The translations under genes and the position numbers were made by a program. Shown here piece by piece: positions 3,322-26,629 of a stretch of 64,000 nt of DNA. Source of the DNA: a virus (lineage: Duplodnaviria; Caudoviricetes); the IMG/VR virus record IMGVR_UViG_3300035675_000001; one strand, written 5' to 3'. Positions within the stretch are counted from its first letter, which is position 1; every line of letters starts with the position of its first letter. The notes beneath the pieces are model-generated. The model ran no database searches. It was not told the DNA's origin and was given only the letters and a program-made list of their open reading frames with translations.

Positions 3322-3798
3322 TCACTCGACCGGCGTGACCGTTACAATCTGGCGCAGGTATAGCCGGTTGGTCGGCGGCAGGCACGGGTCCACGATGGGA
3401 TGAAGGAACGGCGGGTAGGGGAAGGGCCTGGGCTTGGCGAGCAAGAAGACCTCGTTGCTGGGGTCGCTCTCCAGGCCGCTGGCATCGCAAGCCGTGGCCA
3501 TGAAGTAGTAGGTCACGCCAATCTCAAAGGTGTTTGTTATTTTTGCACAGTGACTTGTAGGGCACAAGCACTCCACCCAGCGGATGTTGTTGCTGGCATA
3601 GCCGTTGTAGCCCAGGCCCACAGACAGGTTGGTGTAGTAAACGCCGCTGTTGGTCCCCCAATAGATTTTGAACGTAGAGATTTTGGGTATCTCCGCCTCC
3701 GGGTAGTCCCACGCCAGGGCAACGCCGACCTTGTTGGTTGTCTGTCCCAGCCCGGTCAGGGCGGAGATCAGCCAGATGAGTGAGATGAGCTTTCTCAT
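3322..3798 (-). CDS. secreted fibronectin type III-like domain protein
   Basis: N-terminal signal peptide; LAWD...FKIYWGTNSGVY...TYYFMATACDASGLESDPSNEV is an FN3 pattern. Confidence 0.7.
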   Translation of the reverse strand: MRKLISLIWLISALTGLGQTTNKVGVALAWDYPEAEIPKISTFKIYWGTNSGVYYTNLSVGLGYNGYASNNIRWVECLCPTSHCAKITNTFEIGVTYYFMATACDASGLESDPSNEVFLLAKPRPFPYPPFLHPIVDPCLPPTNRLYLRQIVTVTPVE

Positions 3799-6700
3799 TG
3801 GGGATGGTGGTAAACGAAAGGCTTGAGCATCCGATGCCAGCGGTTGACAAAGCTGCGCTCTGCCTCGTGGCCGCGCTCTTTGCTCTTGAGGATGTTTACA
3901 ATCTCTGTCCGGTAAAAGTTGGTGATGGCGTCTTTCAGCTCTTGCAGCCGGTTGAAGTCGAAGTTGAAGGACTTCCAGTGGGCGCTCTTACCGATCCGGC
4001 TGTGGGGCGGAACCTCGACCACCAGGTAAGCTGTCGTGCTCAGCCACTTGATGTGGTAGTCCGGGTCTTCCTCGCTGCTCATGGACATGATCTGAACGGT
4101 CACGGAGCCGCTGTAACCGTGCTCGGCGTTCTTGGCCTCCATCCGGTAAATCCGGTCAGGGTGCTCATCATGAAGTCCGCGCCACTTCTCCTCGGTCCAG
4201 ATGAAGTGCTCCGGCGATACCGCGTCCTTCCAGTCGATGTCATCCTCCGCCGCCTCATACACCCGCTTGAAAGCAGGCTGCTGCTCGGCCCAGGCCAAAC
4301 CCTTCTCAACCGCCGCGTTCCAGTCCGGGATGCCGGGCACGACCAGGGCGTCGATCATCTGCCGGTGAAGGTTCTTGCCCGCCACGCCGGTCTCCTTCCA
4401 GAGCGTGAACTGGAACCTCTGCTCCCGGTTCTGGCCATACTTGTCCACCAGGTTGCCAATGTCCAGGGCGAGACCGCCAGGGTGAACGAACTTCTTCTGG
4501 ACGACCATGTTGGCCTTGGGGTCATTCAGGAATTGGTAGTGGTGGGCTGTGAAAGCATGGCCCTCGCCTGCGCCCTCCCAACCACTGTCGCCCGTCACTT
4601 CCTTCCAGCCAATGTCCTCGTCGGACTCCTCAACCCAATGGTCCCGGACCTCGCGGAAGTAGGGGCTGCGGTTGGCCCAGTCGATAGCGCCCTTCAAGGC
4701 ACCGTCCATGTTCAAAGCCGCGATCTCCTGGCGCTCCTTCACGTCCAGGTGGTGTTTCAGCTCGACCGAATAGATGTGGTGCCCGGTCCCCGGATTGATC
4801 GGGTTATCGACCGTGGTGCGATACTGGAGCAGCAGGCGGAATCCCGTCTCCGGGTGCTTGGCCATCGCCATCGAGTGGCCCTGCGGCCCGATCATCCAGC
4901 CGTCCAGCTCCCCCACGGCGTCCTTCCAGTCAACCTCGTCCTCACCCTCCTGGGTAGGCAGCAGCTTCATCTTGCGGGCGATTTCCCGGACCAGCTTGTC
5001 ATTGTCCAGGCCCAGGGGCGGCAGGTCATCCAGCGGAACCCACTTGACCTTCTCGGCATCGTCGCCCGCCGTGGCCCTTTCGCCGTCCGGCAGAGTCGTG
5101 CCGTAAACGGTGACCTGCTTCTTGCCGGTCTCATTGGGCATGTCCTTGATGTAAACGAGGCGACCCAGGTCGAGCTTGGTCTCCTCCTTCATCTCCCGGT
5201 GCGCGGCATCTTCGATGGACTCGCCTTCATTCGCGTGCCCACCTGGGATCACCCACTCTCCCTCAGCCGGGGGATACTCGCGCTTGCAGACCAGGCACTC
5301 GAATCCCTTGTCACTCCGCTTGCGGAAAACGGCCACGATGGCGACGCGGCTCTTGTCGTCGCCCTCCTCACTGTTCTCGATCAGGTCTTCCCCGTGGACA
5401 TCCGGGATGCCTGTCATCCGGCTGGCCTCCTCGCGGGTGACGAACTCTCCACGCCTGGTCAGGAAGCCGATCTCCACCTGCTCCCAAATCCGGTTGTAGG
5501 CGTCGTTGTCCACTTCGCCCAGGGCTTCCAGGTCAGCCAGGCTTTTGACCTTGCCGAACATGCCTTGCTGGAGGAATCGCTCCATCGCTTCGGAGTGCGT
5601 GGACCCTGTGGCGACCTGGCGGGTGCGTTTGTGCAGCACAGCAGGCTCGACAAGCGGCCTATTTGTCGCCTCATGCACAATGTCTTGCGGGCTTGTCAGC
5701 GTGCTGAACCTACCTGTTTTTGGATCGTAACTTGTCACACTCTTGTCAACTGCAAGTGCTTCTGCCAGAGCATCCAAGGACTTGTTAGCATACCACTCAC
5801 CTTTGACAGATACAAAACCTTGTTGCTCAGACTCTTGCACGCTACGCAGCGTTCCGCCTTGTTCGAGCAAGCGATTGACAAGACCAGCCTGACAAGACTC
5901 GACTTTGCCCCAGCCGTCGATGCTCAAGATGTGCTTTGGAACGATCAGATTGAAGGTGTCCACCCCGGCAGGCACCGCCCTGATCGACTTCATCTGCTTG
6001 TCATTCAGACCCAGCTTGCGGATAGCGTCTTTGACAAGAAGCATGTCCTGGAGCAACCAGCCCGGCCAGTGAACATGGAACGCCTTGCTATGGCCCGACC
6101 AGGGGAACAAGAATGTGCTCTGCGCCCCGGCTCCCATGATGGCAGCTTCGATGTCGTTTCGCTTGAGCTTGAATGGACCCGCGACATCTTTCCAGGTCGC
6201 GCCCTCGTCGTCTTCAACTGCCTCCGCAACTTGGCTCTCCTCGATGCCACGGTGGTAGAAGTTCAGCTCGATCCTGCCCAGGTCTTTCCGATAGTCCCAG
6301 CTCACCCAGTCCGGGCGGATGCCCACGTCTTCGATCACTTGCGCTGCGATTTGCAGCGCGTCCACATCCTCCTGGTTGGGCACCCACATCCCACGGAAGG
6401 TCATCCAATCCCCCTCCCAAAAGTTGGTGACGCCGGTCAGACCGTTGTTTGCCATCGCTTGCTCAACTTCTTGCAGAGTTGGCTTGCGGGCCGGAACTAC
6501 GTCCTTCCAGTCAGCTTCCTCGTCACTCTCGATGATGTCGCCGCCGCCAATCCCCAGGATGTCCGTGGACAGGGTGCCGGTGCCGGGGTGGTAGAAGAAG
6601 TCACGGCTGTCGCTCCTGCCGCCGCCCAGGTAGTCGAGGGCCAGCTCGTCGATCTCGCGCTTCATCTGCTCCGGGTCCAGACCCTTGGCAGCAAAGCCGT

Positions 6701-9011
6701 GAATGTAACCCGCCCGCTGGGGCACGCGCAGGCTGTGGCTGACGATCTGCCAGCCGCGATCCTTCATGGCTTGCAGAAAAGCCTTCCAGTCAGCACCGAT
6801 AACAAAGCTGTCCCTGGGCTTGCCCTTGGTCACGCTGACAACAAGGTCGTCCTCGTCATCATCAGCAAGTGCTTCTGCAACATCCTTCTTGACCTCTGGA
6901 ATGTCGAACAGGTGGAACCAGAGCTTGCCAGTATGGCGGTTCCGCTTCATGTCGGTGTCGTCCCAGCCCACGTTCGGAGCGCCGACCGCCTGGGCCAGCT
7001 CAACCGCTGCTTGCTCTGGTGCTTGCTGGAAATCAGGGGGCACCACTCCGCTCACATACACGGTCTTGGAATCCCAGTAGCCCTCGATCTGCGTGTAGCC
7101 CTTGTCCTGGAGCACCTGCATAGCCTGGCTGACAACCAGGTCGTTCGGATGGCCCATTGTGTCCTTACCACCAAGGTCATCGTCGTCAGCAAGTGACTCC
7201 GCAACAACAGCAGGGTGGTAGATGTTGAACGAGAACTTGAACATGGGCCGGTAGAGCGGAGGCTTGCCCGGCTTGACCTCGGTGCCGTGAGTCACCCGGC
7301 TTGCGCCCAACGTCTCGCGCAGCTTGTCAGCCGCCAGCTCCGGCATATCGGCCTTGGAGTTGCCAGGCACCTTGCCGGTCACGACCAGCCAGCCATTGGG
7401 GTGCCGGTAGCCACGGAGTGTCGCGTAGCCGCAGTCCCGCAGGACCATCATGGCCTGGTTGAGCAGCACGTCGCCCGGCTCGCCCATCGTGTCCACAGGC
7501 TTGCCGATGTCGTCGTCATCGTCCTCCAGGCTCTCCTCGATCTCTTTGAAGGCCGTGATCTCCGGGTCACCCACGAACCAGGTGATGTCCCAGGCTCCCA
7601 GGTCAGACTTCCAGCGGGTAGTGTAGTCGATGTCGTCGGTGCCCAGGATTTCGTAGAGGCTGGACTTGATCTGGCGGCAGAAGTTCTCCAGCTCCGGGGT
7701 GGATACTCCGCTCACGGTCCAGGGCTTGTTGTAGGTCGGGACGATGATGGTGTCCACGATCCGCTTGGGCTTGCCCAGGTCGCCCCAGCCCTCGTCGGAA
7801 GGTTCCTCGATGACCTTGTAAATCTTCAACCCGGCCAGCCCGAACAGGTGCCGGATCATGGCCCCCTTCTCGGTCGGGGTATGCAGCTCCTTGCCGCTGA
7901 TGTCGTCGTCTTCCAGGGACTCCTCTTGTGGGCCAGGAGGCCAGTCCAGGCTGGTGTCACCCCTGGCGCGTGCGGCATCGAGCCGCCTCTGCTCGGCCTT
8001 GTTGCGCTTGTCAGCCTCTTGCTCCTTCTGGCGCTTGTCATTCAACCACTGCTCGATGGAGTTGATGACCTGCTCGTTGCTGTCCGATTTGACGATGATC
8101 GAGAACCAGGTCGAGCCTTGCTCGGAATAGAAACCGGCCTTGCGGAGCGCCAGGTCCATCATGGCGTGGAGCGTGTAGCAACAGGAATCCAGGGCGAAGT
8201 AGGGCATGTGGTCGCCGCCGTCGTGGACGACGATGAGCACGCCGCCCTCACCATACTGCTCGCCCTTGGCCTTCCACTGCTCCGGGGTGTAGAAGACGTG
8301 CTTGTGCCCGCCCGAATACATGGCGTCATGGTGGTCGAGCACGCCAACGATGATCTTCCAAGCCCGCTCGGCATCCGGCGAGGCCCCTTCCGGCAGCGCG
8401 AAGTCTGGCGGGATGGGAGGCCCATAGACTTCCTTCTCGTCCGCGAAATCCGCTTCCGACGCCTCGACCACGACCAGGGAGAGGTTCCACATGTTGTTCC
8501 ACTGGTCGAGCGCCAGCTTGTTCTCCCGGACCACCACGCCCTGCGGAAGCTCGGCGCGGACCAGCCCGGCCAGCTCCTTGCCCATCTGCTCGCAGTTCTC
8601 CCGGAGCATCTTTCGGCTCTCAGCCTCCGGCAGCGTGAGCTTGATGGTGAGAAACTGCCCGGCCAGATGCCGGTCGCCGACGCGGCGGTCGCGGCTCCAC
8701 TCGAACTCGAACAGCAGGCCGCTCTGATGGAACAGATCACCGACTTTGTTTACAAAATCTTCGCCCAGCCTGGCCTTGAGGTCACTGCCCTTGGTGCCGA
8801 TCACCGGCACTGACTCCGCCAAGCGCACCCACTCGCCGCCTACGGGCAGGTTGACTACCTGCTGGTCCTCGTGGTTGAACACGTCGCCCTGGGAGTAGCT
8901 GACCCAGCCGTCATCGTTCGACCAGTAATCCCCAGCCTGGTTGCGGATCATGAAGCGCGGGTAAACCGCCACTTCCTTCATGTCGAAGTCTTGTTCCAGG
9001 ATCGTGCTCAT
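3795..9011 (-). CDS. 1738-aa modular protein with repeated acidic linkers and a Nudix hydrolase domain
   Basis: Nudix box GGHANEGESIEDAAHREMKEETKL (GX5EX7REUXEE) at about 5175-5245; about 10 acidic linkers. Confidence 0.8.
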   Translation of the reverse strand: MSTILEQDFDMKEVAVYPRFMIRNQAGDYWSNDDGWVSYSQGDVFNHEDQQVVNLPVGGEWVRLAESVPVIGTKGSDLKARLGEDFVNKVGDLFHQSGLLFEFEWSRDRRVGDRHLAGQFLTIKLTLPEAESRKMLRENCEQMGKELAGLVRAELPQGVVVRENKLALDQWNNMWNLSLVVVEASEADFADEKEVYGPPIPPDFALPEGASPDAERAWKIIVGVLDHHDAMYSGGHKHVFYTPEQWKAKGEQYGEGGVLIVVHDGGDHMPYFALDSCCYTLHAMMDLALRKAGFYSEQGSTWFSIIVKSDSNEQVINSIEQWLNDKRQKEQEADKRNKAEQRRLDAARARGDTSLDWPPGPQEESLEDDDISGKELHTPTEKGAMIRHLFGLAGLKIYKVIEEPSDEGWGDLGKPKRIVDTIIVPTYNKPWTVSGVSTPELENFCRQIKSSLYEILGTDDIDYTTRWKSDLGAWDITWFVGDPEITAFKEIEESLEDDDDDIGKPVDTMGEPGDVLLNQAMMVLRDCGYATLRGYRHPNGWLVVTGKVPGNSKADMPELAADKLRETLGASRVTHGTEVKPGKPPLYRPMFKFSFNIYHPAVVAESLADDDDLGGKDTMGHPNDLVVSQAMQVLQDKGYTQIEGYWDSKTVYVSGVVPPDFQQAPEQAAVELAQAVGAPNVGWDDTDMKRNRHTGKLWFHLFDIPEVKKDVAEALADDDEDDLVVSVTKGKPRDSFVIGADWKAFLQAMKDRGWQIVSHSLRVPQRAGYIHGFAAKGLDPEQMKREIDELALDYLGGGRSDSRDFFYHPGTGTLSTDILGIGGGDIIESDEEADWKDVVPARKPTLQEVEQAMANNGLTGVTNFWEGDWMTFRGMWVPNQEDVDALQIAAQVIEDVGIRPDWVSWDYRKDLGRIELNFYHRGIEESQVAEAVEDDEGATWKDVAGPFKLKRNDIEAAIMGAGAQSTFLFPWSGHSKAFHVHWPGWLLQDMLLVKDAIRKLGLNDKQMKSIRAVPAGVDTFNLIVPKHILSIDGWGKVESCQAGLVNRLLEQGGTLRSVQESEQQGFVSVKGEWYANKSLDALAEALAVDKSVTSYDPKTGRFSTLTSPQDIVHEATNRPLVEPAVLHKRTRQVATGSTHSEAMERFLQQGMFGKVKSLADLEALGEVDNDAYNRIWEQVEIGFLTRRGEFVTREEASRMTGIPDVHGEDLIENSEEGDDKSRVAIVAVFRKRSDKGFECLVCKREYPPAEGEWVIPGGHANEGESIEDAAHREMKEETKLDLGRLVYIKDMPNETGKKQVTVYGTTLPDGERATAGDDAEKVKWVPLDDLPPLGLDNDKLVREIARKMKLLPTQEGEDEVDWKDAVGELDGWMIGPQGHSMAMAKHPETGFRLLLQYRTTVDNPINPGTGHHIYSVELKHHLDVKERQEIAALNMDGALKGAIDWANRSPYFREVRDHWVEESDEDIGWKEVTGDSGWEGAGEGHAFTAHHYQFLNDPKANMVVQKKFVHPGGLALDIGNLVDKYGQNREQRFQFTLWKETGVAGKNLHRQMIDALVVPGIPDWNAAVEKGLAWAEQQPAFKRVYEAAEDDIDWKDAVSPEHFIWTEEKWRGLHDEHPDRIYRMEAKNAEHGYSGSVTVQIMSMSSEEDPDYHIKWLSTTAYLVVEVPPHSRIGKSAHWKSFNFDFNRLQELKDAITNFYRTEIVNILKSKERGHEAERSFVNRWHRMLKPFVYHHPQ

Positions 9012-9505
9012 GTCGCAGCTTTTTTCAAGATAGCCGTGGTGCTCACATTGGGCACCGGGCGGACCAGCCGGATGACGCAGTTCATCCCCAAGGCAGCTTC
9101 CCGCTCGCCCGCGTCCAGGGTCTCCATCGTGTAGTCACCGCCCTTCACCCAAACGTGGGGCCGGGCGTGTTGCAAGAAACTGGTCGCCCGCAGGTCATCG
9201 AAAATGTAAACAATATCCACCGCTTCGAGGGCAGCGATCACTGCGGCCCGGTCGTGCTGGCTGTTGACCGGGCGCGTCGGACCCTTCAACTGCCGAACCG
9301 ACGCATCGCTGTTGACCCCGACAACCACGAACTCGCCTTCCATCCGCGCCTGCTCCAGCAGGTAGATGTGGCCCGGATGAAGGATGTCGAAGCAGCCGTT
9401 GGTCGCAACCACGCGGCAGGCTTTGGGCAGCATGGCCCGCCAGGCGATCAAACCTGCCAGGTCCATGATCTTCTCCTCGGCGGAGCTGTAGTAGTCAGTG
9501 TCCAT
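9008..9505 (-). CDS. rfaE2: ADP-heptose synthase adenylyltransferase (HldE C-terminal / RfaE2-like cytidylyltransferase family)
   Basis: TNGCFDILHPGH (HxGH), VGVNSDASVRQLKGPTRP, VKGGDY motifs. Confidence 0.85.
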   Translation of the reverse strand: MDTDYYSSAEEKIMDLAGLIAWRAMLPKACRVVATNGCFDILHPGHIYLLEQARMEGEFVVVGVNSDASVRQLKGPTRPVNSQHDRAAVIAALEAVDIVYIFDDLRATSFLQHARPHVWVKGGDYTMETLDAGEREAALGMNCVIRLVRPVPNVSTTAILKKAAT

Positions 9506-10034
9506 GCTGTTTAAGAACCTGGAGCCAGTAGGTCACGTCCTCCGGCGTCATGGTGTCGTAGATGGTGGTGTGGCCCTCGTGCGGTTCCTCCAGGGATTCG
9601 ACCCAGGCTTTGAAGTGCGGGTCGCGGGCCAGGGCGCTCTCGAACGCCTGGTAGAGCTGGCCGACCTGGGTCCGGCGCTCGTGCTCCTTCACGAACGGAA
9701 CGGCCACGCGCATGGCTGCCGCCCGCAGGGACTTGGGCGACAACATTCCGGCCCAACCGCTTTCCCTGGTGAACTCGCGTGGCCAAGGCTCGATGTGGGG
9801 GCCACGGATGCGAAGCAGATAACGAGCGCCGGTGCGGTGCTCCAGGGTGACCGTGTATTCGCCAATCTGCCGGACCCAATCCCGGCCTTCTTCTGGCATT
9901 TCCTCCATGAAGGCGTGAACAATCTGGCTGGCAAGTCCCTCTGCCGAAGTGTCCTGATAGACCTCTTTGAAATCAATATCGTCCTCCTCCGCTTCGAGAA
10001 GGCCGTTCAAGATCAATTCGGTTTCGCTTCGCAC
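9495..10034 (-). CDS. hypothetical protein with N-terminal acidic tag (LLEAEEDDIDFKEV)
   Basis: GTG start 4 nt after GTAGTTA motif. Confidence 0.7.
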   Translation of the reverse strand: MRSETELILNGLLEAEEDDIDFKEVYQDTSAEGLASQIVHAFMEEMPEEGRDWVRQIGEYTVTLEHRTGARYLLRIRGPHIEPWPREFTRESGWAGMLSPKSLRAAAMRVAVPFVKEHERRTQVGQLYQAFESALARDPHFKAWVESLEEPHEGHTTIYDTMTPEDVTYWLQVLKQHGH

Positions 10035-10693
10035 GCCTTAACTACCCCCGGAACTTTGTGGGGGTGGGTTATGGCCCAGGGCGTCAGGTCGGCGGGCAGC
10101 CAATCGTGTTTACAGAGGGAGATGATCTCGGCGTGGTTGCCCCAGGACATGCCGCACGCCCGGAGGCCCCACATGATGATCCGATCCGTGGACAAATACC
10201 CCTTCCACTCCGCCCAGTCGTAGTCGTAGTCCCTCTTGAACGCCCAGGTCTTCCAGTCGGTCAGGGCCGGAAAGGTGAACACCTTGCTGTCGTAGAGCTT
10301 TTGCGCGGATGTGCGCCAAAAAGCCTGGCAGCCGCCCTGGATGTGCTCCTGGACCTCGCCTTTGCCCAGCAGGCTGCCGAAGCAGTCCACATCCGGGATG
10401 TAGCTCAACTTGCGGCTGATCCTGGCATCGGGGTCAAACTTGAAGATGATGTCGCCGGTCTCGCGCAGCGCCTCCTCGAAGAAGCTGTGCCACCAGTTCC
10501 CGCCCTCCGGCTGGACCTTGAGCGGCTTGGGCCGCTGGACAAACTTGGCGGGCACTGCTGCCAGATCAGTGCGGGGCTGATCCGCAACGATAACGACGGA
10601 CCCACCAGGGTAAGCCTTCCAGATCAGGTCAACGCAGAAGGTGATAAGGTCAAGGCTCTCCGAAGCAACAGTTACCACGAAAATCGGTTTCAC
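10013..10693 (-). CDS. glycosyltransferase-like protein (GT-A fold)
   Basis: beta-strand then KFDPDA DxD-like motif, HIQGGCQ; family not resolvable by eye. Confidence 0.5.
   Translation of the reverse strand: MKPIFVVTVASESLDLITFCVDLIWKAYPGGSVVIVADQPRTDLAAVPAKFVQRPKPLKVQPEGGNWWHSFFEEALRETGDIIFKFDPDARISRKLSYIPDVDCFGSLLGKGEVQEHIQGGCQAFWRTSAQKLYDSKVFTFPALTDWKTWAFKRDYDYDWAEWKGYLSTDRIIMWGLRACGMSWGNHAEIISLCKHDWLPADLTPWAITHPHKVPGVVKACEAKPN
10039..10045 (-). promoter_or_regulatory. GTAGTTA putative late-promoter motif
   Basis: same heptamer 4-7 nt before starts at 22064, 26629, 35046, 38029, 39026, 46744, 56452 and (ATAGTTA) 15603. Confidence 0.6.
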
Positions 10694-10705
10694 GGGACAG
10701 AGAAC

Positions 10706-10728
10706 AAAAAAGCCCCACCGAGCAGGGC
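10706..10728 (-). terminator. intrinsic terminator
   Basis: GCCCTGC-TCG-GTGGGGC stem (with G-U pairs) followed by T6. Confidence 0.6.
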
Positions 10729-10861
10729 CTTGTCACTTCCAACCGGATGGCGTATCGGCGTTGCCGCCGACCACTTCACTTCCATCCTTCGCTCCAAACG
10801 CCTGGGAGAGTGAGTTCCCGACTTACGGGGCTGGAGTGAAAGGCATAAGCGCCCGATGGGG

Positions 10862-11580: not shown

Positions 11581-11589
11581 ATCGTGTGA

Positions 11590-18600: not shown

Positions 18601-21600
18601 GTTGGCGTGGCCGTCATCAGCATCGCGCCGTAGTCGGTGCGGTGCGTCGTATCATACGGATAGACGGGAGAAGTGTTGTATTGGACCTGGACGTAAGGGT
18701 CAGTGTGCGCCGTGCCCGACGTGTTCCAGGTCTGGTTGTTCTGCCCGCCAAATCCAATGATGATGCGCGTGATGCCGCCGTTGAGCGAGCGGGCGTAGGC
18801 ATGAACGTGCCCGTGGAGGGTCAGGTCCACTCCCCATTCTTTCCAGGGCCAATCCGTGCGCGGGTAATCGCCATACTTGTGGCCACTGTTCCACGCATCC
18901 GAGTTCCAATTCGGATGGTGATACATCACGACCTTCCAGGGAGCTTGGGACCGCCTGATCCAGTCCTTGATCTGCTCAGCCTGGACGCTGTTCATCCGGT
19001 CGAGTCGGACGCGGCCAGTGACGAACGCCACGGTCTTGTCGGCAGTAAAGCTGGCTTGGATCACGTCACCGCCGTAATACCGCTTGCCTTCGTAATCGAC
19101 GTAATTGTTGCCGGGGTTGGCGATGACGCGATAACGCCGGGCCTTGCGTAGCACAACCCACGGCGTGGCAGGGTCGATCCTGGGTTCACCCCACACATAC
19201 ATGAAGGGCACCGTTCCGTTGGCCTTGAAGGTCTGATCGCCGTAGTAGGTGCCTCCGCTGTAGATGACAAACTGTGGGGCATCGTTGATGCCGTCGTCGC
19301 CGTAAGAGTCGCTGGTCTTGACCGTGTAGGTGCCATTGGCATCGACCTGAATCGGGTTGCCCAGGTAGGGCAGTTTGACGTTGGCCCCAATCGGGCTGAA
19401 AGGCGCTTCGCACCAGTTGCCATCCGGCTCAGCAGGCTTGCGATTATTGTCGATGAAGCCTGGGTCTTCCACCGAGTTGTAGCCGTCCGCAACCACGAAC
19501 AGCTCGACGTGGCCGATGCGGACGCGGTAGTAGCGCCCGTTACCTGGCAGGTAATCGTAGTAGTTGGTTTCGAGGCTGTTGTCCCAGCCGTTATCCGGCT
19601 CAGCCCGACGACGCACCGTGGCCCCGTTGTAAGCCAGGAAGTCCGTGACACCGCTGACCCCAACGAAAATCTGGCCGTAGGTGTAAGTGCCGCCGTTGTA
19701 AACCACGTATTGGGGTCCAACCGAAGTTGGGTAAACCCGGTAGGTCTGGTCGTAGCCCTTGATGTTCCCGCTCTGGATGTTGTCCTCGGCAATCGGGGAA
19801 TCGGGGTTCTGGTAATCGTGGTTGCCGTAGCAAACAAAATACTTCTTGGCGTCGATGAAGTCCTGAACGTAAATCTGCGCCGGGTAGAACTCACCAGGCA
19901 AGCCGTCGTAGTATTGGTTGTCCCCGGCATAGAAGTAAGCGTCCGGGTTCCAGCCGCGCACCAGGTTGCTGACCGCTGCCTGGGGAGCGCCGTAAATTCC
20001 ACCATCCGCGCTGACCGCGATATAAGTCGGGTCAGACCAAATCGAGGGCTGCTCGCGCACAACCTCCGTCGAGGTCGGCGCGTAGTTGGCATAGACATTG
20101 ATCGCCGAGCTGAGGCCGAAACCAATCGGGAAGTTGAAAAACCACGTCGAGTTGGAGTAGTCGTAAGTGCCCGTCAAGTTCAGGTCGTAGCTGCCGATTC
20201 GCAGGAAGTCAGAGTTGTAGGGGTCGCTCTCGTGCGTCAGCATCGAATCGACGTTGACGAAATGCGGGTTTTTGACCACCGGAGGAACCGGCGCTCCAGT
20301 CAGCTTCCAGACGTTGAAGAAGGCAAACGGAGTGCCCACCAGAACAGTCCAGTGCATGAGCGTGCTATCCGCAATGATGGGCGGAGAGACATCGAACCAG
20401 TTAAGGAAATCGTAAGTGCCCTTGACCTGGTAGATGTCACCCACGATGGCAGTGAAATCGAAAGCGAACGCCCTGGTGTTGCTGATGCTGAACTGAACCT
20501 CGTAAGGCGGATACGGATAGTCGGCAAGCGTGCCCCAGTATTGCACCTGGCCCGACGTAGCCGAAAAGACCGTGCCGAAAGAGCAGTAGTCGGCATAGCC
20601 CACCTGGTCTTTGATGAGATAGCCGGTGCTGACATTGCGCGGCCTGCGGGTCGCGGGCCGGACCTCCTCCATTGCCTGGATCACCTGGAGTCCAGCGGCG
20701 GTGACCTCGGTGTAGTTGAGCTGCTGGTCGCCCAGGTCAGCCTGCCTGCGATACGTGATGGCAGTCTGCGACGAAAGCGGATCAGTCTCGGTCAGCCAGT
20801 CGCGGACAATGGTTCCTTGGGCGAACGAGCCATTCATCCAGGGCCGGTAGGGCGAAAGCGCCTGCGACCCGAAGTTGGCCAGGGTGCCATTGGCCTGGAG
20901 GTCTTTGTTGGGATCGACGGTGGAGACGCCGAACAACTGCTCCGCCCGGTCGAAGTCGATGGTCAGACTCAGGTCGTAGTAGGAGCTGCGATACTTGATC
21001 GAAGACAACTGCTGCGTCACGGAGAGCACCCGGTGCGTGCCGTTGTCCGTGCCGTTGAGCAGTTCCGTGACCTGGATAGCCGTGTGGTTGAAAGCCGATC
21101 CCGCCGAAATTGCCTCGAAGCGCAGGCCGGTGCCGGACGGGTTGACGTAGGCTTTGGTCTCCGGCCCGCCGCCTGTCAGGATATAGGGCGAGAGCGAAGG
21201 GTCCGGGTCCATCGGCGCGGTGCCGATGATGCTGACCTTGAAGAAGGGGTTGAAGCCGTTGACGACCTGCGTGTAAAACTCGGTGCTGTTGGTGCCGTTG
21301 CGAGCCGTGGCCGTGCCGGTCCAGGTGTAGTAGGGGCCATCCGTCAGGTTCCAGGGATCATAGAAATTGTCACGGACCTGCTTCGGATAGAAGTCAGGAA
21401 CCTCGGAGAAGTCCTGGTCGTTGCGCGGATCGCCGATGTCGTTGGCGATGCGGGGGCTGAGCCGCTGCCAGAGCGGGGTCATCCGCACGTCGTCGTAGCC
21501 CAGGAGCCGCCCCAGGGTCTCAAACGACTGAGCCGTGCCCTTGAACTGGAGCCGGGGGAACCAGGTGCTCAGCAGCCTGCGGGCGTCGGAGTCGGCGTTA

Positions 21601-22064
21601 GCCGGGTCCAAAGCCGCTGACCGGTAGAGCACTGCGCCCACCGTTGCCGCCAGGTATGGGAGCACGTTGGCTTCCACCAGGCGGAGGCTGTCCACACCGT
21701 AGGCCGCGCTGAGAAGGACGTGTTCCTCGTCAAGCTTGAGCTGGCCTGCGACCCATTCCAGCAGCTCAGGCGTGGCGTCCTCCGGGGTATCGTCTTTGAT
21801 TTCAAGAGAGCGACTGTAAACTTTTCCCTTCGGCGACTGGACCTGGGCAATGACGGCGTTGGGCGGTGCGCCGGAGACATCAGACTCCGGCAACCCTTGG
21901 CCAGTGAGGAGAAGTTCGAGCTTTCCAGTGTAAGCGCGGAGGTCGTCAACGCGGTCCTGGTAACCGCCGACGACAGCTTGAATCAAAGCCTGCTCATCGA
22001 GGCTGATTATTCCTTCTGGCAGAAGGCCATAAAGGAAGTCTTCGCTTAAATTCTGCAACGACAT
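15600..22064 (-). CDS. 2154-aa baseplate wedge/tail protein with metallophosphoesterase and LamG-like domains
   Basis: N-terminal RLQFKGTAQSFETLGRLLGY (wedge/P2 gpI-like KGT); SADGG, GDNQY, GNHDY, YHHP, HGHVH phosphoesterase motifs; VTVSFWL...FTYDG...IHDLRVWN LamG pattern. Confidence 0.7.
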   Translation of the reverse strand: MSLQNLSEDFLYGLLPEGIISLDEQALIQAVVGGYQDRVDDLRAYTGKLELLLTGQGLPESDVSGAPPNAVIAQVQSPKGKVYSRSLEIKDDTPEDATPELLEWVAGQLKLDEEHVLLSAAYGVDSLRLVEANVLPYLAATVGAVLYRSAALDPANADSDARRLLSTWFPRLQFKGTAQSFETLGRLLGYDDVRMTPLWQRLSPRIANDIGDPRNDQDFSEVPDFYPKQVRDNFYDPWNLTDGPYYTWTGTATARNGTNSTEFYTQVVNGFNPFFKVSIIGTAPMDPDPSLSPYILTGGGPETKAYVNPSGTGLRFEAISAGSAFNHTAIQVTELLNGTDNGTHRVLSVTQQLSSIKYRSSYYDLSLTIDFDRAEQLFGVSTVDPNKDLQANGTLANFGSQALSPYRPWMNGSFAQGTIVRDWLTETDPLSSQTAITYRRQADLGDQQLNYTEVTAAGLQVIQAMEEVRPATRRPRNVSTGYLIKDQVGYADYCSFGTVFSATSGQVQYWGTLADYPYPPYEVQFSISNTRAFAFDFTAIVGDIYQVKGTYDFLNWFDVSPPIIADSTLMHWTVLVGTPFAFFNVWKLTGAPVPPVVKNPHFVNVDSMLTHESDPYNSDFLRIGSYDLNLTGTYDYSNSTWFFNFPIGFGLSSAINVYANYAPTSTEVVREQPSIWSDPTYIAVSADGGIYGAPQAAVSNLVRGWNPDAYFYAGDNQYYDGLPGEFYPAQIYVQDFIDAKKYFVCYGNHDYQNPDSPIAEDNIQSGNIKGYDQTYRVYPTSVGPQYVVYNGGTYTYGQIFVGVSGVTDFLAYNGATVRRRAEPDNGWDNSLETNYYDYLPGNGRYYRVRIGHVELFVVADGYNSVEDPGFIDNNRKPAEPDGNWCEAPFSPIGANVKLPYLGNPIQVDANGTYTVKTSDSYGDDGINDAPQFVIYSGGTYYGDQTFKANGTVPFMYVWGEPRIDPATPWVVLRKARRYRVIANPGNNYVDYEGKRYYGGDVIQASFTADKTVAFVTGRVRLDRMNSVQAEQIKDWIRRSQAPWKVVMYHHPNWNSDAWNSGHKYGDYPRTDWPWKEWGVDLTLHGHVHAYARSLNGGITRIIIGFGGQNNQTWNTSGTAHTDPYVQVQYNTSPVYPYDTTHRTDYGAMLMTATPTSLNGMVQTINNVVVDNWTLTKPDCVRAYQERPEDQLDEPMLDLSDEYPWRRDLVNGGELIDRATYNPPTPDVTVTQVGQSIAVFSQTGAQYDVTLNKLGPNPPSFMVNERPLTPYVPGQMAVAYYGTFIPLDHIDPRQRDDLPRRTLSQEATDFYHSANLGVDHSVDDMDWAFEPGWRLYHFGLVQGVLVADPVKFFGRHHRDNLVGWFPFNEHPFDAPPLIDHSVISTDMIPLNATPFGREFDQWRGWHLRVPPGLDFRSDPHSRDLSGPVTVSFWLMVPEGVALPAPYLIQVGSIKITFSNILNVGSVDSDGNTNWVLLSGMASPGWNFFSFTYDGVSAWTCYQATMSTPVAQVDAQTYTDHIWTEDQSVGVVGTTLDYRIHDLRVWNSVKTIEELELVRYHDPNPTACLYRPAYLTCVNDYDRYGVKVLDSGYVMPDLLPSSIETPSEAWVSRYDATGQYQAQSRFKETGIGSGPTLPVRQVLGEQWDTLTAAGTVVVSGWKGQGYGMNDAWMFDNPPPQVMQLLESGSTKYGIIPTWFSTGTTIPWPNAMMATNPCRDRIWVEGDDSYVYEIKVVRSGTQAFGLSAQKLFTQRSDAELMLSGTEGTYAPLLQLVQSAGIGGTHCYGVTSYGTIFPRQLLVVAGTDSTTDNGLWTVLPKGRILGGSVLPSSGTYDIRLASPGVAKVYHPAKLLYSEQPTGGEVVLTDTGYSKQLRVNTSGQVYAAAYAGTVNAPWIFMYGNEEVVTSATQAQAYSNWANPTSFGVSLSLPALNVDGNISFENDETALPGFYRLEIDSGNIGQVDENFDGFKVIITVGDIPFEATLCAGKTGANFQSTDTFDFTLPHVLPGNTLGYSGNSWLLDINWYNALRDERRGTARQLAIYGYRMVRLNTTLYQLKLTATGSSITEVSTTGTDFPATPGGWMAAITSWGTAYSYTHESRIYSSNETFQSRYPMSNVLTATTVERKEDIVMNTPAVISDPPVPTLPVYGPIVIT

Positions 22065-22070
22065 CTCGCA

Positions 22071-22880
22071 TTAACTACAGTAGCCGTAGCCGTAGCGATT
22101 CGGAGAAGGCGGAACTTGAAGCGGTTCTCCGTCAGGTGTGAACGGCTTCGTTGTGCGCCCCTGCCAGTTCGCGCCCATCTTGACGGCCTCAGACTCCAGG
22201 TGGAACACGCGGACGGTAGGCAGCAGGTGCCTCTTGATGCGAGGCCAGCGGGCAGCCCACTGAACGTCCATATTCTCGGCGCTGCCTTCGGTGTCCGGGT
22301 AGCGCAGCTCGTGCTGGCGCATGTATTGGCTGTGCCAGAGCTGGAAATAGCCGATGGGGCAATATCCCCACTGCTTGTGGATGAGGTTGGCCCCGATGGG
22401 GTAATCAGCCGGAGTGCTGACCAGGTAGCGGTATCCGAACTGCGGATCGTCGTGCCAGTTTTGCTTGAGCTTGCGCCAGGTGTCGTAGCCAACCACGTTG
22501 CAGCGTTCCGCGCCGTAGATGCAATCCCGCTGGAGGAAGGACTTATCCAGCATGTTGCGAAAGCCCAGCGGCAAAACAACGTCAGCATCCATTTGGAGGA
22601 TGAAACCCTTTTGGCGCAAGGCACCCAGGCCGAAGTTGATCGCCGCGCCCTTGTTGAAGTCATCACCCTTCTCGGTGAAGCAGTCGGTGGGGACGCATTC
22701 GACGGACCACTTTCGGCAGACCTCTTTGGTCACGGTATCCTCGTGGCTGGTGACCACGACCACACGGTCCAGGTGTGAGAGGTTCATTGGCAGACTCTCT
22801 GCCAAGAAGTCCCCGTAGTTGAGGCAGACAATTACTGCTTCCAACCGGCTGTCATAGAATGATTTTGGCTGATCGCTCAT
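22071..22880 (-). CDS. glycosyltransferase, family 2-like
   Basis: VIVCLNYGDFL, FNKGAAINFG, LQMDAD DxD motif, GYFQLW. Confidence 0.7.
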   Translation of the reverse strand: MSDQPKSFYDSRLEAVIVCLNYGDFLAESLPMNLSHLDRVVVVTSHEDTVTKEVCRKWSVECVPTDCFTEKGDDFNKGAAINFGLGALRQKGFILQMDADVVLPLGFRNMLDKSFLQRDCIYGAERCNVVGYDTWRKLKQNWHDDPQFGYRYLVSTPADYPIGANLIHKQWGYCPIGYFQLWHSQYMRQHELRYPDTEGSAENMDVQWAARWPRIKRHLLPTVRVFHLESEAVKMGANWQGRTTKPFTPDGEPLQVPPSPNRYGYGYCS

Positions 22881-22947
22881 ATTGATGTTTGGGCAGAAAA
22901 GCCGGGCCAAGGCAACATGGTATTTTTCGTAAACTTTTCTTACCCTA

Positions 22948-25092
22948 TTAGTCTATCACGTTCGGCTTGCCCAAAAACAGACGGGTTTTTCGGGCATTGT
23001 CGCCTTTTCCGCTGAATAGAACGGCTTTCACAAGGAACCGCATCGCCCCAGGAGAACTGGAATCAAGCAGTGGCTTGCCGATGAGTTCCCGGCAGCAGCC
23101 CTTCTGGATGTAGGCCACGGTCAGGTGAGGTCTGTATTCGGAGTGAGTGTCGGTGTGGGGCAGCTCGTTGACCCTGGCGTTCAGCGCCCGCAGGGCCTCG
23201 CTTTCCACGTCGAACTTGAGCACGTCATACTTGTCGCTCGACTCAAACATCGAGCAGCCCATGATCTGGATTTCAAAAGGCTGGGTCTCCTCGATGATCC
23301 GCAGCAGCTCCCCGGTCGGCTCTGAGTCATGGAGGCCCCACTTCACGGTGACGTGCGGCTCGGTCTCCCGGCCAAAGCCCGGCTCGTCCGCGTAAAGCTC
23401 CTCGTCGAGCACATACATCTGGCCCCAGTGGATCACGGCGTCACCCAGCTCCGGGGGTGCCGGTGCCATCAGGCACGAATACTCGCGCCCTTCGCACAGG
23501 CTCTCCAGTTCCAGGCGCATCTGCTCCTGGTCCTGCTCTGGATACATCCATCGCCGCATCAATTCAGGGTCCGTGGCTTCCACCACGTTGTCCACGCTCA
23601 CCGACTGGTCGCCGCCCGTGTCTTCACTCCACTCCTCCCCGGCCCGGTCTCGCGCCTCGTCGAACAGAGCATAGAACCGATCATTGTCCTCAAAATCGTA
23701 AAGCGCCTCCTCCATGTCCGGGAATTTCTGCTCCAGGCCGCGACGGTAGCTGCGCTTGATCCAGTTGCTCCAGGCTTGTTGGCGCTTCTCCTCCTGGAGC
23801 TGCGTGTGCCCCTCCTCATCGAGCAGGGGGTAATTCTCCCGGCTGTCATAGTCCTTGCGGAACTCCTCGAACGAGTCACCGGGAATCTCCGGGATGTCCT
23901 CCTCGTAAAAGCCCAGCTCTTTGCCGTTGTAAGAGAGCGCCCTGACCTTGAGCCAGGGGTAGTGCTCTTTGAAGTAGTTCAGGTTGGCCTGCTCGACCAG
24001 ACCGCCGCTGAAATCAGAGTGGGAAGCCACGGAGAACCAGCCGTCCCGGTCGTTCTGATTCAGGTTTTCGTTGGCCCAGGCCAGGATCGCTTCCGCGTGT
24101 GAACCCTTGTCGTGCTTGATGAGGTCGGTCAGGTCATCCTCATCCTCAATGCCCTCGAACATGTCCAACTGCTGCTGTGGCGCGGGCTGGTCCCCTAGCT
24201 TGAACTGGAGCTGATTACGGTCGGGATACATGGCCGCGTGGAGCTTCGGCCAGGTGACCAGCTCTACCACACGGTCAACATTGACCGAAGGTTTATGGGA
24301 CGTGTCCGTGTCCCAAAACTCCTCGGCTTCTGAGGCCATCCGGTTGAAAAAGTTGAGACCGTGAGGTCCGAAAAGAAAAGTCTCGATCTCGGCCTGCGGG
24401 TTTTCGGACTTGAACTGACCGCCGAATCTTTCCGCCAACGAGTCCGCAAACTCCTTAGCATAGGTCTCCCTCCAGGCCCTTCCGATGGCTTGCTCGGCGA
24501 CCTCGCTCATGATGTCGTCGTCCAGCACCCGGCCTTGAATTGACTGTTTGACGTAACCCCGGAACGGATTCCAAAGCGGCATCCAATCCAGCTTGTCCGG
24601 TTCCAGGAACACCCGGAAATTTAGCTCGCTGCCATCCTCCTCCAGCCAGGGGAAGTTGCGAACGAAGAACAGGTGGTTGGCGTGCTCCACCGTGCCAGGA
24701 TACGCTTGGCTGTAGGTCGTGCCCGGTATCTCCCACATTTTTCGATCTTCGTCCCAATAGAGGTTTTGACGCGCCCACTCCTCGCGGGACTCATATTCCC
24801 TGCTTCCGGCCAGCTCTTTGACATCCAGGTCCGGGTCGTCCTCCATCGCTTCCCCGACGTAGGGCTTGATCTGATGAAGGTGAACCAGGGCATGACCGTG
24901 CTGCGGGTGGGCAACCCACAGGGTCTTCCTGTCCGCGTTGCGCGAATGGACCGTAGCGACCTTCCAGACACGGCCCCATTCTGCCGTGCCAGGGAGGATG
25001 TCCTGGAGGTAGGCCAGCACCTTGCGGCCCGGCGCATACCAATCGTCGGCCAGGTTCGCCACGTCCTTGAAGTCGTCGAGTTCGTCGTTCAC
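22948..25092 (-). CDS. 714-aa modular protein with acidic linkers and C-terminal 2H phosphoesterase (Acb1/LigT-like)
   Basis: two HxT motifs, EPHVTVKWG and RPHLTVAYI, about 75 aa apart. Confidence 0.75.
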   Translation of the reverse strand: MNDELDDFKDVANLADDWYAPGRKVLAYLQDILPGTAEWGRVWKVATVHSRNADRKTLWVAHPQHGHALVHLHQIKPYVGEAMEDDPDLDVKELAGSREYESREEWARQNLYWDEDRKMWEIPGTTYSQAYPGTVEHANHLFFVRNFPWLEEDGSELNFRVFLEPDKLDWMPLWNPFRGYVKQSIQGRVLDDDIMSEVAEQAIGRAWRETYAKEFADSLAERFGGQFKSENPQAEIETFLFGPHGLNFFNRMASEAEEFWDTDTSHKPSVNVDRVVELVTWPKLHAAMYPDRNQLQFKLGDQPAPQQQLDMFEGIEDEDDLTDLIKHDKGSHAEAILAWANENLNQNDRDGWFSVASHSDFSGGLVEQANLNYFKEHYPWLKVRALSYNGKELGFYEEDIPEIPGDSFEEFRKDYDSRENYPLLDEEGHTQLQEEKRQQAWSNWIKRSYRRGLEQKFPDMEEALYDFEDNDRFYALFDEARDRAGEEWSEDTGGDQSVSVDNVVEATDPELMRRWMYPEQDQEQMRLELESLCEGREYSCLMAPAPPELGDAVIHWGQMYVLDEELYADEPGFGRETEPHVTVKWGLHDSEPTGELLRIIEETQPFEIQIMGCSMFESSDKYDVLKFDVESEALRALNARVNELPHTDTHSEYRPHLTVAYIQKGCCRELIGKPLLDSSSPGAMRFLVKAVLFSGKGDNARKTRLFLGKPNVID

Positions 25093-25514
25093 GGCCAGTT
25101 CGTTCCTTCCGTTCCGTTGACCACGATGGTCTGCGAATCATTCTGCCAGTAGGGCGGACGATTGGCAGTGCCCCAAATCTCGATGTATTTCTGCCGCCAG
25201 GTGCCGATGTCGTTCGTCCCGATGTAAATGTAAACCGAGAAGCTGTCCGGCCCGCCGACATCCACGGAGAAGCGTCCCCAAGGATACTTGTTCATCAGCC
25301 ACTCCACCCGATTCAAGTCGGCCACGCCCTGGCCGGGGAAGACATTGCAGTCCCCGTTGCCCAGCTCACGGTCGATGGGGGCCTGCTGGAGCTGGGCGTT
25401 GATGAGCCAACTGCCCCGCGTGGCCAGATACATGATCTGCTCATAGCTGAGCATGGGCCGATGCTGGGCGTTGATCTGCCAGACGTTGTTGTAGATGGCG
25501 ATTTTCGGGATCAT
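25089..25514 (-). CDS. hypothetical protein
   Basis: overlap-coupled to both neighbours. Confidence 0.6.
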   Translation of the reverse strand: MIPKIAIYNNVWQINAQHRPMLSYEQIMYLATRGSWLINAQLQQAPIDRELGNGDCNVFPGQGVADLNRVEWLMNKYPWGRFSVDVGGPDSFSVYIYIGTNDIGTWRQKYIEIWGTANRPPYWQNDSQTIVVNGTEGTNWP

Positions 25515-26629
25515 GCTTGTCCTTGCCGCGCTCGGTATTCCAGCTCCCGGTTGAACATGTTGCCGCCCTCCAGGTAACCCTCGCGGTCCAGGATCGCCAA
25601 GATTTCGCGTTCATTGCCGGTCGTCCGGCTCATCTCCATCTCATCGAAGGTCGTCCGCAATTCCCACAGGTCGTCATCGAGCTGCGTGACCAGCACGTTC
25701 ATGTGCGGGTTGATCGGGAAGACGTAATGATGGCTGCCCGCTTCACGCCAGACACCTTTGGCCAGCTCAGCCTGGATGAGCGGACCCAAGCCCAGGTTGC
25801 CGCCCAGCAGCTCCTTGGTGCTCTCGTCGTCATCATCCAGGGATTCATTCCAGACGCCGGTGCCGTAGTCCGCAAGCTGTTCGCGCCACTCCCTGAAATC
25901 CTTGCGCTTAATCATGGACTTGGCGTTCTCCAGGCTGTTGGCGCTCTGCCGGTGGAGCATGAGGCCCTGCGGGGTCTGCTCGGTTTTGACGAACTCGTAG
26001 ATCACATACTGGGTCCAGGTGGACATCTCCCCGAAGTGGCCGTGAGTGCGCCGGACGTTTTTGAGGACCAGGTAGTTCCCGTATTTGTAAATCTTCTTGG
26101 TGCCGAACCACTTGTTGTTCTTCCGGCTGAAAAACTCCGGCTCCGCAGCCTTCATGTCCTCAAGGCTGGCCACAGGTTCGCCGCCCCAGGCGACCTCCTT
26201 CACGTCGAAATCGCCATCGCTCTCCTGGAGTGCCCGATTCCGGTAATCGACCGTGCCCGATGGCTCTCCGTTAACGATTAAAGGTGCCCCATAGAGGTTC
26301 CGCCAGCTCCTCAAGGCCCACTTTAGCACCCCAAAGCTGGCAAAGCGGCCCAACCAATACCAGTTGTTGGTGAAATCAACCCGAATGCCGCCCTCTCCCT
26401 TGTCAAGCTGTTGAATACGAATCAGTTTGACCGGCATCCTGGAAACGTATTCCCGGATTCCCCGCAGGTTCCGGCTTTTCCGCATCGGATGACCGTTTTC
26501 ATCGTAGAGGTAGTGGACCTCTCCGTAGGTCTCAGGCCAGGCCGTATCCCGGAAGGTGTGGGCCGCATCCTTCCAGGAAGCCTCGTCGTCATCTGCCTCA
26601 AGCAGTTGCCTGATGATTTGGTCGATCAC
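25511..26629 (-). CDS. modular hypothetical protein with acidic linkers
   Basis: GTG start (VIDQIIRQLLEA) exactly 4 nt after GTAGTTA; three acidic tags. Confidence 0.7.
   Translation of the reverse strand: MIDQIIRQLLEADDDEASWKDAAHTFRDTAWPETYGEVHYLYDENGHPMRKSRNLRGIREYVSRMPVKLIRIQQLDKGEGGIRVDFTNNWYWLGRFASFGVLKWALRSWRNLYGAPLIVNGEPSGTVDYRNRALQESDGDFDVKEVAWGGEPVASLEDMKAAEPEFFSRKNNKWFGTKKIYKYGNYLVLKNVRRTHGHFGEMSTWTQYVIYEFVKTEQTPQGLMLHRQSANSLENAKSMIKRKDFREWREQLADYGTGVWNESLDDDDESTKELLGGNLGLGPLIQAELAKGVWREAGSHHYVFPINPHMNVLVTQLDDDLWELRTTFDEMEMSRTTGNEREILAILDREGYLEGGNMFNRELEYRARQGQA

Follow-up and report, generated by a model that had tools for sequence, protein, structure and literature searches.

The internal proteins of the T-even phages (IPI-III) and the Alt protein carry a short N-terminal peptide that ends at an L/I-x-E site (PMC3012670, PMC9026906). 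The first 10 residues of IPIII constitute the capsid-targeting sequence, which is cut off by gp21, a protease whose cleavage motif is L/I-X-E (PMC9026906), and the corresponding Alt peptide consists of 7 residues (PMC9026906, PMC3012670). The T-even internal proteins are diverse anti-defence proteins that have the capsid-targeting sequence alone in common and act on host defences after ejection (PMC9026906, PMC3012670). Here we describe an acidic peptide tag that recurs in four genes of a 64,000-nucleotide stretch of DNA from an uncultured virus of the Caudoviricetes (IMG/VR record IMGVR_UViG_3300035675_000001; this whole stretch is hereafter the window) and compare the tagged proteins with T4-type head cargo and with other known systems.

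Several of these systems share single features with the tagged proteins. Polyvalent proteins are likewise large late proteins that string together many unrelated, fast-shuffled, effector-type domains and are predicted to be delivered with the DNA, with processing proposed to occur via embedded zincin-like peptidases (PMC5512222). Among the ejection or inner-body proteins of phiKZ, 201phi2-1 and SPN3US, many head-internal ones are cleaved behind the Glu of a three-residue motif by gp21-related proteases, some of them at more than one site (PMC10052503, PMC9026906). RNA-virus polyproteins and the retroviral Gag protein with its spacer peptides provide an analogy only: one chain with repeated protease sites between functional units. 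These systems belong to another realm and employ another protease, and their products are replicative and structural rather than injected cargo.

The tag and its occurrence in the window

The tag follows the pattern [L/V/I]-x-E-[A/S]-(D/E)4-6-x-x-[W/F/V]-K-[D/E]-[V/L] and is present in about 19 copies in four genes on the minus strand. All tag peptides quoted in an earlier prediction made from this DNA alone (hereafter the original prediction) were found in the translations, and two more copies were added in the largest protein, P0001, which consists of 1738 amino acids (aa). The tagged genes and their tags are listed below, with the predicted local distance difference test (pLDDT) values of the structural models and the matches to a hidden Markov model (HMM) of the tag that are discussed further on.

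3795-9011, minus strand: P0001, 1738-aa tagged polyprotein with about 12 tags
8970-9002, minus strand: N-terminal tag ILEQDFDMKEV, residues 4-14 of P0001; pLDDT below 50 over residues 1-17
8424-8474, minus strand: tag VVVEASEADFADEKEVY, residues 180-196, newly found copy; pLDDT below 50 over residues 190-200
7884-7928, minus strand: tag QEESLEDDDISGKEL, residues 362-376; pLDDT below 50 over residues 353-379
7497-7541, minus strand: tag IEESLEDDDDDIGKP, residues 491-505; pLDDT below 50 over residues 483-504; homology to the orthologue P0005 stops here
7161-7205, minus strand: tag VAESLADDDDLGGKD, residues 603-617
6846-6881, minus strand: degenerate tag VAEALADDDEDD, residues 711-722, without K-[DE]-h (h, hydrophobic residue)
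6498-6536, minus strand: tag IIESDEEADWKDV, residues 826-838; matched by the tag HMM; disordered in the AlphaFold model; homology blocks of the orthologues P0006 and P0007 begin here
6183-6230, minus strand: tag VAEAVEDDEGATWKDV, residues 928-943
5349-5384, minus strand: degenerate tag LIENSEEGDDKS, residues 1210-1221, newly found copy directly ahead of the NUDIX domain
4914-4955, minus strand: tag TQEGEDEVDWKDAV, residues 1353-1366; matched by the tag HMM; homology blocks stop here
4596-4634, minus strand: tag VEESDEDIGWKEV, residues 1460-1472; matched by the tag HMM
4218-4262, minus strand: tag VYEAAEDDIDWKDAV, residues 1584-1598; matched by the tag HMM
9495-10034, minus strand: P0002, 179-aa single-module tagged protein; its N-terminal peptide ends LLE and is followed by AEEDDIDFKEV
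9960-10001, minus strand: tag of P0002
22948-25092, minus strand: P0003, 714-aa tagged protein
25060-25086, minus strand: tag DELDDFKDV of P0003
24811-24858, minus strand: tag VGEAMEDDPDLDVKEL of P0003
24130-24162, minus strand: tag MFEGIEDEDDL of P0003
25511-26629, minus strand: 372-aa tagged protein, the short form of P0004
26564-26605, minus strand: tag LLEADDDEASWKDA of the 372-aa protein
26192-26230, minus strand: tag LQESDGDFDVKEV of the 372-aa protein
25808-25852, minus strand: tag WNESLDDDDESTKEL of the 372-aa protein

The tag is real, highly non-random and clade-wide. A simple form of the pattern, at least five D/E within the 11 residues ahead of K-[DE]-h, occurs 13 times in five proteins of the window, compared to 0.39 copies expected from 200 residue shuffles (largest, 2); two matches located outside the four tagged genes were judged to be due to chance. 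The same pattern occurs 31 times in G003, a related contig, where 0.88 copies are expected from shuffles. The HMM scan that the original prediction had proposed, run on the window, yielded matches confined to the four named open reading frames (ORFs), and no match was obtained in any wrong-frame ORF of the window. When the tags are aligned on the codon of the Lys, the mean identity of their DNA is only 51%, and GAC/GAT as well as GAG/GAA are both used, which indicates selection on the peptide and rules out a DNA repeat or recombination artefact. Internal translation starts within the tags were also ruled out: the residue found most frequently ahead of the Lys is Trp (15 of 68), whose codon is not a start codon. 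Mimicry of the C-terminal tail of the single-stranded DNA-binding protein SSB, which is suggested by the acidic-plus-aromatic pattern, was set aside because that motif requires a free C-terminus, which is never present in the tags.

When 68 tags from six sources are anchored on the Lys, their profile is L-L-E-[S/A]-[E/D]-[E/D]-D-D-[F]-D-[W/V/F]-K-[D/E]-[L/V]-x-G-P. The Lys is the sole invariant column across 12 paralogous tag-plus-module units and is also invariant in two orthologous tags; in the VVVEASEADFADEKEVY tag, V-E followed by A or S, together with the Lys, is conserved in all five orthologues. The N-terminal part of the tag is distinctive as well. An [LIV]-x-E triplet precedes 33 of 44 tags, compared to 12 of 52 other acidic clusters and 10% of random 11-mers, and the longer form [LIV]-x-E-[ASG] precedes 23 of 44 tags but only 2 of the 52 other acidic clusters (Fisher p = 4e-8). 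Among 63 tags, the P3 position is occupied by L in 28, V in 18, I in 9 and A in 2. The [LIV]-x-E site followed by A or S, whose resemblance to T4 gp21 specificity was pointed out in the original prediction, fits the published L/I-X-E motif (PMC9026906) and is specifically enriched at the tags.

Every tagged protein begins with a tag. In 18 N-terminal tags, the acidic block lies behind an amphipathic leader of 10-17 aa that ends with h-h-E and is followed by A, S or D (an example of the pattern is x-I-I-x-x-L-L-E). The internal tags lack the amphipathic leader and retain [L/V/I]-x-E. The spacing between tags is mostly 102-143 aa and ranges from 76 to 394 aa.

Modules between the tags and distribution across the clade

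The window, with a G+C content of about 60%, comes from a contractile-tailed phage and encodes a sheath (62030-63994), a portal (36113-38029), a tail fibre (33373-35046), a helicase and a primase. Wetland metagenomes of at least two studies contain the window DNA, and the phage is an uncultured jumbo phage from wetland. Megablast against GenBank phages produced no match to the window, and the closest GenBank phage sheath and capsid proteins show at most about 30% identity. Related contigs were obtained from IMG/VR, namely G003 (238 kb, 96% complete, 66% sheath identity to the window), G001 (70 kb, 81%) and G002 (26 kb, 78%); the 14.6-76.8 kb region of G003 is collinear with the window, in inverted orientation. 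Nothing useful was obtained by tblastn of P0001 against GenBank phages, by an IMG/VR search for related loci with P0001, by a PHROGs search with the large ORFs neighbouring the tagged genes, or by ESM Atlas feature searches.

G003 contains at least 31 tags in 14 ORFs, over 55-155 kb, and further copies are present in G006 (102 kb; 8 tags), G007 (4), G008 (8) and G009 (12), a recurring chance match being discounted. Two back-translated tag patterns were scanned against the whole of IMG/VR, and these two scans revealed no multi-tag loci outside this clade, the other matches being isolated and due to chance. The tagged proteins account for about 15% of the called coding residues in the window and about 11% in G003, and the capsid, portal, sheath, helicase and primase proteins are free of tags. 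The tag consensus is retained across contigs whose orthologues share only 34-50% identity. At positions 150379-154835, G003 contains five adjacent small genes with one or two tags apiece, an arrangement reminiscent of the hypervariable internal-protein locus of T-even phages. At 21349-22296 of G001, the closest relative, a gene for a tagged protein (IVLEDDDEEEGIGFKDVY) is located between the capsid and sheath genes, that is, within the head-tail block; no homologue of this protein was found in G003.

P0001 begins with a conserved region of about 345 aa and further contains four paralogous alpha/beta modules of about 100 aa each, a NUDIX domain and unique C-terminal modules. Four homologues were found among 5.8 billion proteins; the N-terminal region and the NUDIX domain are kept in all four. 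Otherwise the homologues diverge: two contain a Peptidase_C39 module, two contain a Cys-rich module, and the C-termini are dissimilar. P0003 combines two paralogous modules of about 230 aa with a C-terminal 2H phosphoesterase. The modules that could be assigned or modelled in the window proteins are the following.

6204-6548, minus strand: tag-plus-module unit of P0001 modelled with AlphaFold, residues 822-936
4992-5345, minus strand: NUDIX hydrolase module of P0001, residues 1223-1340 (Pfam PF00293, E 9.4e-19; Nudix matches in PDB down to 4.6e-10)
23110-23367, minus strand: 2H phosphoesterase module of P0003, residues 576-661 (Pfam PF13563, E 2.7e-9; H-x-T motifs HVT and HLT)

The domain-model match places P0001 among the Nudix hydrolases, and its Nudix box appears near-canonical by eye. 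The P0003 module belongs to the 2H superfamily, as indicated by the Pfam match and both H-x-T motifs, and shows only insignificant similarity to Acb1 (E 0.34-0.64). The Peptidase_C39 module, a C39-like cysteine peptidase, is found in P0006 (residues 1299-1427) and P0007 (residues 1225-1353), in both cases followed by an acetyltransferase-like C-terminal module, and a Cys-rich, zinc-ribbon-like module is present in P0005 and P0007; none of these three modules was found in P0001 of the window. Peptidase_C39 was ruled out as a general tag-processing enzyme because, apart from its restriction to P0006 and P0007 and its absence from the window protein, no C39-like peptidase was found in G003, which is 96% complete and carries at least 31 tags.

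The AlphaFold model of one tag-plus-module unit of P0001, with 12 paralogues supplied as the alignment, shows a compact alpha-beta-beta-alpha-beta-beta core with pLDDT above 90, whereas the tag of the same unit is disordered (pLDDT about 50) and is not part of the fold. When the N-terminal 510 residues of P0001 were modelled, four of the stretches with pLDDT below 50 matched the four tags in this region (ranges listed above), and a predicted template modelling score (pTM) of 0.31 indicates that the domains are not packed against one another. The structure prediction of inter-tag modules that the original prediction had called for, run on this unit and on the P0001 N-terminus, thus yielded compact domains, and in these models the tags occupy the disordered linkers between them. 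A Foldseek search with a small P0001 module against PDB and BFVD returned just a generic two-layer alpha/beta match, which is uninformative, and PDB profile searches with the conserved N-terminal modules of P0001 returned only spurious matches to de novo TIM designs.

The modules were originally described as unrelated and about 90-130 aa long. Most of them are indeed unrelated, and the all-against-all comparison of G003 revealed mostly singletons; a Pfam search with ten G003 tagged proteins gave no match. Several modules are nevertheless paralogous, namely four in P0001 and two each in P0003 and the 372-aa protein, and the tag spacing is wider than was claimed. The possibility that the tag is part of a repeated domain was ruled out because it is disordered, lies outside the fold and accompanies modules most of which are unrelated. 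The expectation that module content varies between relatives while the tags persist was borne out. Among five P0001 orthologues, 24 of 88 ends of homology blocks fall within 15 aa of a tag, compared to 9.6 expected (maximum 19 in 1000 random trials), and at the third tag of the 372-aa protein family the window and G007 carry different modules behind the tag, whereas G003 carries none.

Head assembly in the relatives and possible roles of the tag

A Peptidase_S77 (T4 gp21) domain is present in a 539-571-aa ORF of G003, G001 and G006 (PF03420; 58.5, 37.8 and 60.1 bits, respectively), and a gp23-type capsid gene adjoins the protease ORF (PF07068, about 96 bits in G003 and G001). The N-terminus of the capsid protein contains KLAE followed by T. 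In all three contigs (234232-235848 in G003), the S77 prohead protease of the clade is fused, via a Pro/Ala-rich linker, to a basic, coiled-coil-like scaffold domain. The 278 C-terminal residues that form this scaffold-like part have a net charge of +13, an isoelectric point of 9.8 and 16 [LIV]-x-E sites.

The tagged proteins and T4-type cargo thus share a gp21/gp23-type head system, seen for this clade in G003, G001 and G006 outside the window, and in both cases a conserved element precedes cargo that is hypervariable between relatives. Unlike in T4, the signal recurs internally, up to about 12 times per chain; a long conserved acidic block and h-K-[DE]-h are located on the C-terminal side of the putative cut; and the protease is fused to the scaffold, whereas gp21 and gp22 are separate proteins in T4. 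The likeness between the T4 targeting sequence and the clade leader is limited to length and the h-x-E ending, the peptide being too short for homology to be judged.

In comparison with the polyvalent proteins, P0001, with about 12 tag-delimited modules including NUDIX (and Peptidase_C39 added in the orthologues), falls within the range of 2 to 15 unrelated conflict-type domains, and it is encoded in a late or virion context of a portal-terminase phage, with portal, sheath, fibre and baseplate-like genes in the window and a common GTAGTTA motif (see below). The NUDIX, peptidase and acetyltransferase-like modules found here and in the orthologues are of the polyvalent kind; of the polyvalent hallmark domains, which also include ART, methylases and helicases, MuF, DdrB-ParB and MPTase were not detected by Pfam, which revealed only NUDIX, 2H and, in the orthologues, C39. 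The shared inter-domain tag sets the present proteins apart; PMC5512222 describes none, and the word 'linker' is absent from its text. The phiKZ and SPN3US motif, S/A/G-x-E, differs from the tags, 55 of 63 of which have L, V or I at P3; SPN3US propeptides are mostly 111-254 aa long compared to the 10-17-aa leaders here; and the multiple cuts in phiKZ-type proteins destroy long propeptides and do not set functional modules apart, with no shared acidic tag described.

The best supported of the readings, at about even odds, is that the tag identifies one class of cargo in head assembly of the T4 kind, acting as a signal for both capsid loading and cleavage. In the scheme that we infer for targeting, the cleavage site, packaging, ejection and effector roles, the tagged proteins would be made late, and the N-terminal amphipathic peptide of 10-17 residues, together with the acidic block, would direct each of them into the assembling prohead core, the basic scaffold domain of the protease fusion perhaps attracting them electrostatically. 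Cleavage by the gp21-family (S77) protease would follow the Glu of [L/V/I]-x-E, both in the N-terminal tag and in every tag between modules. Its products would be many small domains, each of about 10-15 kDa and opening with an acidic-[W/F]-K-[D/E]-[V/L] stub; the NUDIX and 2H phosphoesterase domains and numerous ORFan modules would be among them. These domains would stay in the capsid until they leave it together with the DNA, to act early as effectors; NUDIX, 2H and ART-type domains represent classes that are predicted to be head-packaged in myoviruses (PMC9503650; PMC5512222). The tag would also be a portable unit at recombination breakpoints, such that modules could be gained, lost, duplicated and shuffled without loss of loading or processing. 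The fuller proposal, in which one tag serves as prohead address, protease cutting site and recombination joint of plug-and-play effector polyproteins from which dozens of ORFan effectors are injected, is tentative, and we lean against it in this complete form.

Several observations weigh against cleavage and packaging. The protease lies outside the window and is deduced from relatives whose sheath identity is 66-81%. The conserved residues of the tag, the invariant Lys among them, are mostly downstream of the proposed cut, and about 25% of the tags lack [LIV]-x-E. The T4 internal proteins are basic, while the cargo here is strongly acidic, with a net charge of -97 for P0001. Untagged cytidylyltransferase-like and glycosyltransferase-like enzymes are encoded in the same operons as the tagged proteins, so that co-expression or operon membership is no proof of packaging. 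Because the acidic run, the aromatic residue, the Lys and [D/E]-[V/L] are conserved downstream of the Glu, a gp21-type site alone does not explain the tag; the downstream residues may serve for binding to the basic scaffold or for presenting the cleavage site to the protease, or may themselves be a second site, given that h-K-[D/E] followed by h likewise has the h-x-acid form. The cargo interpretation of the original prediction gains from the protease type in the relatives, the N-terminal tags and the mosaicism; it did not foresee the conserved part past the Glu, the tags that lack [LIV]-x-E, the untagged enzymes in the operons or the partial paralogy of the modules.

Packaging without cutting, in which intact polyvalent proteins are delivered by the virion, with the N-terminal tag targeting the head and the internal tags serving as acidic disordered spacers, appears unlikely, despite its agreement with the disordered tags between compact 80-130-aa domains and with the pTM of 0.31, which indicates no fixed inter-domain packing. 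An uncut beads-on-a-string chain would be repelled by DNA and by the negative lumen of the tail, through which it could pass as a thread on ejection; the net negative charge resides mostly in the tags, a quarter of the tags are without [LIV]-x-E, and packaging into the head without processing is known for some polyvalent proteins, among them the N4 virion RNA polymerase (PMC5512222). A pure spacer, however, needs neither an invariant Lys nor the flanking [W/F/V]...[V/L], nor a specifically enriched [LIV]-x-E-[AS], and the clade possesses a protease whose family specificity fits that site. We also give little credence to a docking motif unrelated to the capsid, which a hub protein of phage or host, or another protease, would bind within the infected cell, and through which late multi-domain enzymes of the cytoplasm would be recruited, regulated or processed. 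The acidic run with aromatic-K-[DE]-h does resemble a peptide docking motif, the operons are shared with untagged metabolic enzymes, a Peptidase_C39 module is present in some orthologues, and the known structural proteins (capsid, portal and sheath) are all tag-free. Against docking stand the lack of C39 in the window protein and in G003, the strict N-terminal placement of a tag with a short h-h-E leader, which is the architecture of T4-type head cargo, the start-proximal motif common to virion genes, and the tagged gene within the G001 head-tail block.

The least probable explanation, which we regard as effectively refuted by the module, structure, shuffle and codon results, is that the tag has no dedicated function, being either an N-terminal border that the members of a single duplicated domain family have inherited or an artefact of composition or of DNA repeats. 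The paralogous modules (four in P0001, pairs in the other two multi-module proteins) are what such an origin would predict. Most tagged modules are dissimilar, however, those of G003 being mainly singletons; the tag lies outside the folded domain; the tag DNA, at 51% identity, uses mixed synonymous codons; the 13-31 observed copies contrast with 0.4-0.9 in shuffles; and the consensus is kept where orthologues are only 34-50% identical.

Gene context and implications

The GTAGTTA motif was originally reported to head the operons of the tagged genes, and this holds; it occurs 10 times in the window, compared to 0.78 expected, with nine copies on the minus strand. Eight copies are located 4-7 nucleotides ahead of starts, namely those of the portal, the fibre, the 2154-aa and 1397-aa proteins, three smaller ORFs and the tagged gene that starts at 10034. 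The motif often takes the form GTAGTTAnnGCGTG, and the starts are ATG or GTG. The copies of the motif and the untagged neighbours of the tagged genes are as follows.

1127-1133, 10039-10045, 22072-22078, 26634-26640, 35054-35060, 38037-38043, 39031-39037, 46750-46756 and 56457-56463, minus strand: GTAGTTA copies
10039-10045, minus strand: GTAGTTA 4 nucleotides upstream of the P0002 start, heading the gene string from 10034 to 3795
26634-26640, minus strand: GTAGTTA 4 nucleotides upstream of the GTG start at 26629
9008-9505, minus strand: untagged cytidylyltransferase-like gene (Pfam PF01467, E 1.4e-18), translationally coupled, between P0002 and P0001
25089-25514, minus strand: untagged 141-aa gene between the tagged genes P0004 and P0003, with 74% identity to its G003 orthologue
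22071-22910, minus strand: untagged glycosyltransferase-like ORF that follows the 714-aa tagged protein

The ORFs in the gene strings behind 10039-10045 and 26634-26640 overlap by 4-11 bases. The longest ORF at 25511-26842 (minus strand) opens at an ATG at 26842, and its first 71 codons look non-coding (rich in Ser, Thr and Arg) and overlap the end of 26637-27509. As judged from this sequence, the real start of the P0004 gene is the GTG at 26629, four bases after GTAGTTA, in agreement with the start originally assigned to the fourth gene. GTAGTTA or GTATTTA is placed likewise ahead of 24 ORFs in G003, where GTA[G/T]TTA heads baseplate-type genes, three tagged polyproteins and one smaller tagged ORF, and another copy is located upstream of the sheath gene. 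The motif is so near the start that a Shine-Dalgarno sequence would not fit in between; it resembles a late promoter for leaderless or near-leaderless mRNAs or an unusual initiation signal. Since this start-proximal motif is common to virion and tagged genes, the two groups are probably co-expressed.

The 9008-9505 gene contains a GCFDILHPGH motif of the RfaE-II/HldE type, and together with the glycosyltransferase-like gene it suggests a phage-encoded sugar-nucleotide or glycosylation route co-expressed with the cargo genes. In the 2154-aa protein (15600-22064, minus strand), the N-terminus is Tail_P2_I-like (baseplate), and residues 996-1090 match a calcineurin-like metallophosphoesterase domain (Pfam E 2.3e-11), which would be an enzyme domain built into a virion tail or baseplate protein.

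The cargo interpretation, with its putative steps of packaging, cleavage and injection, is coherent, and the in silico tests are in its favour. Should the tag indeed signal loading and cleavage, it would label every injected effector of this uncultured jumbo-phage clade, more than 30 modules per genome and most of them ORFans, and would provide a ready list of candidate anti-defence and host-takeover proteins with their domain boundaries drawn. The cargo would then diversify by module swaps at a conserved joint while the addressing is kept. In its fuller, plug-and-play form, the system would be the first in which a double-stranded DNA phage processes polyproteins to obtain injected cargo, and a natural counterpart, for many cargoes at once, of the engineered delivery that uses the T4 targeting sequence. 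Both the T4 paradigm of internal proteins with targeting sequences and the polyvalent-protein concept would gain a defined, testable sequence signal. As a short portable peptide, the tag could also serve for multiplexed protein packaging in phage capsids.

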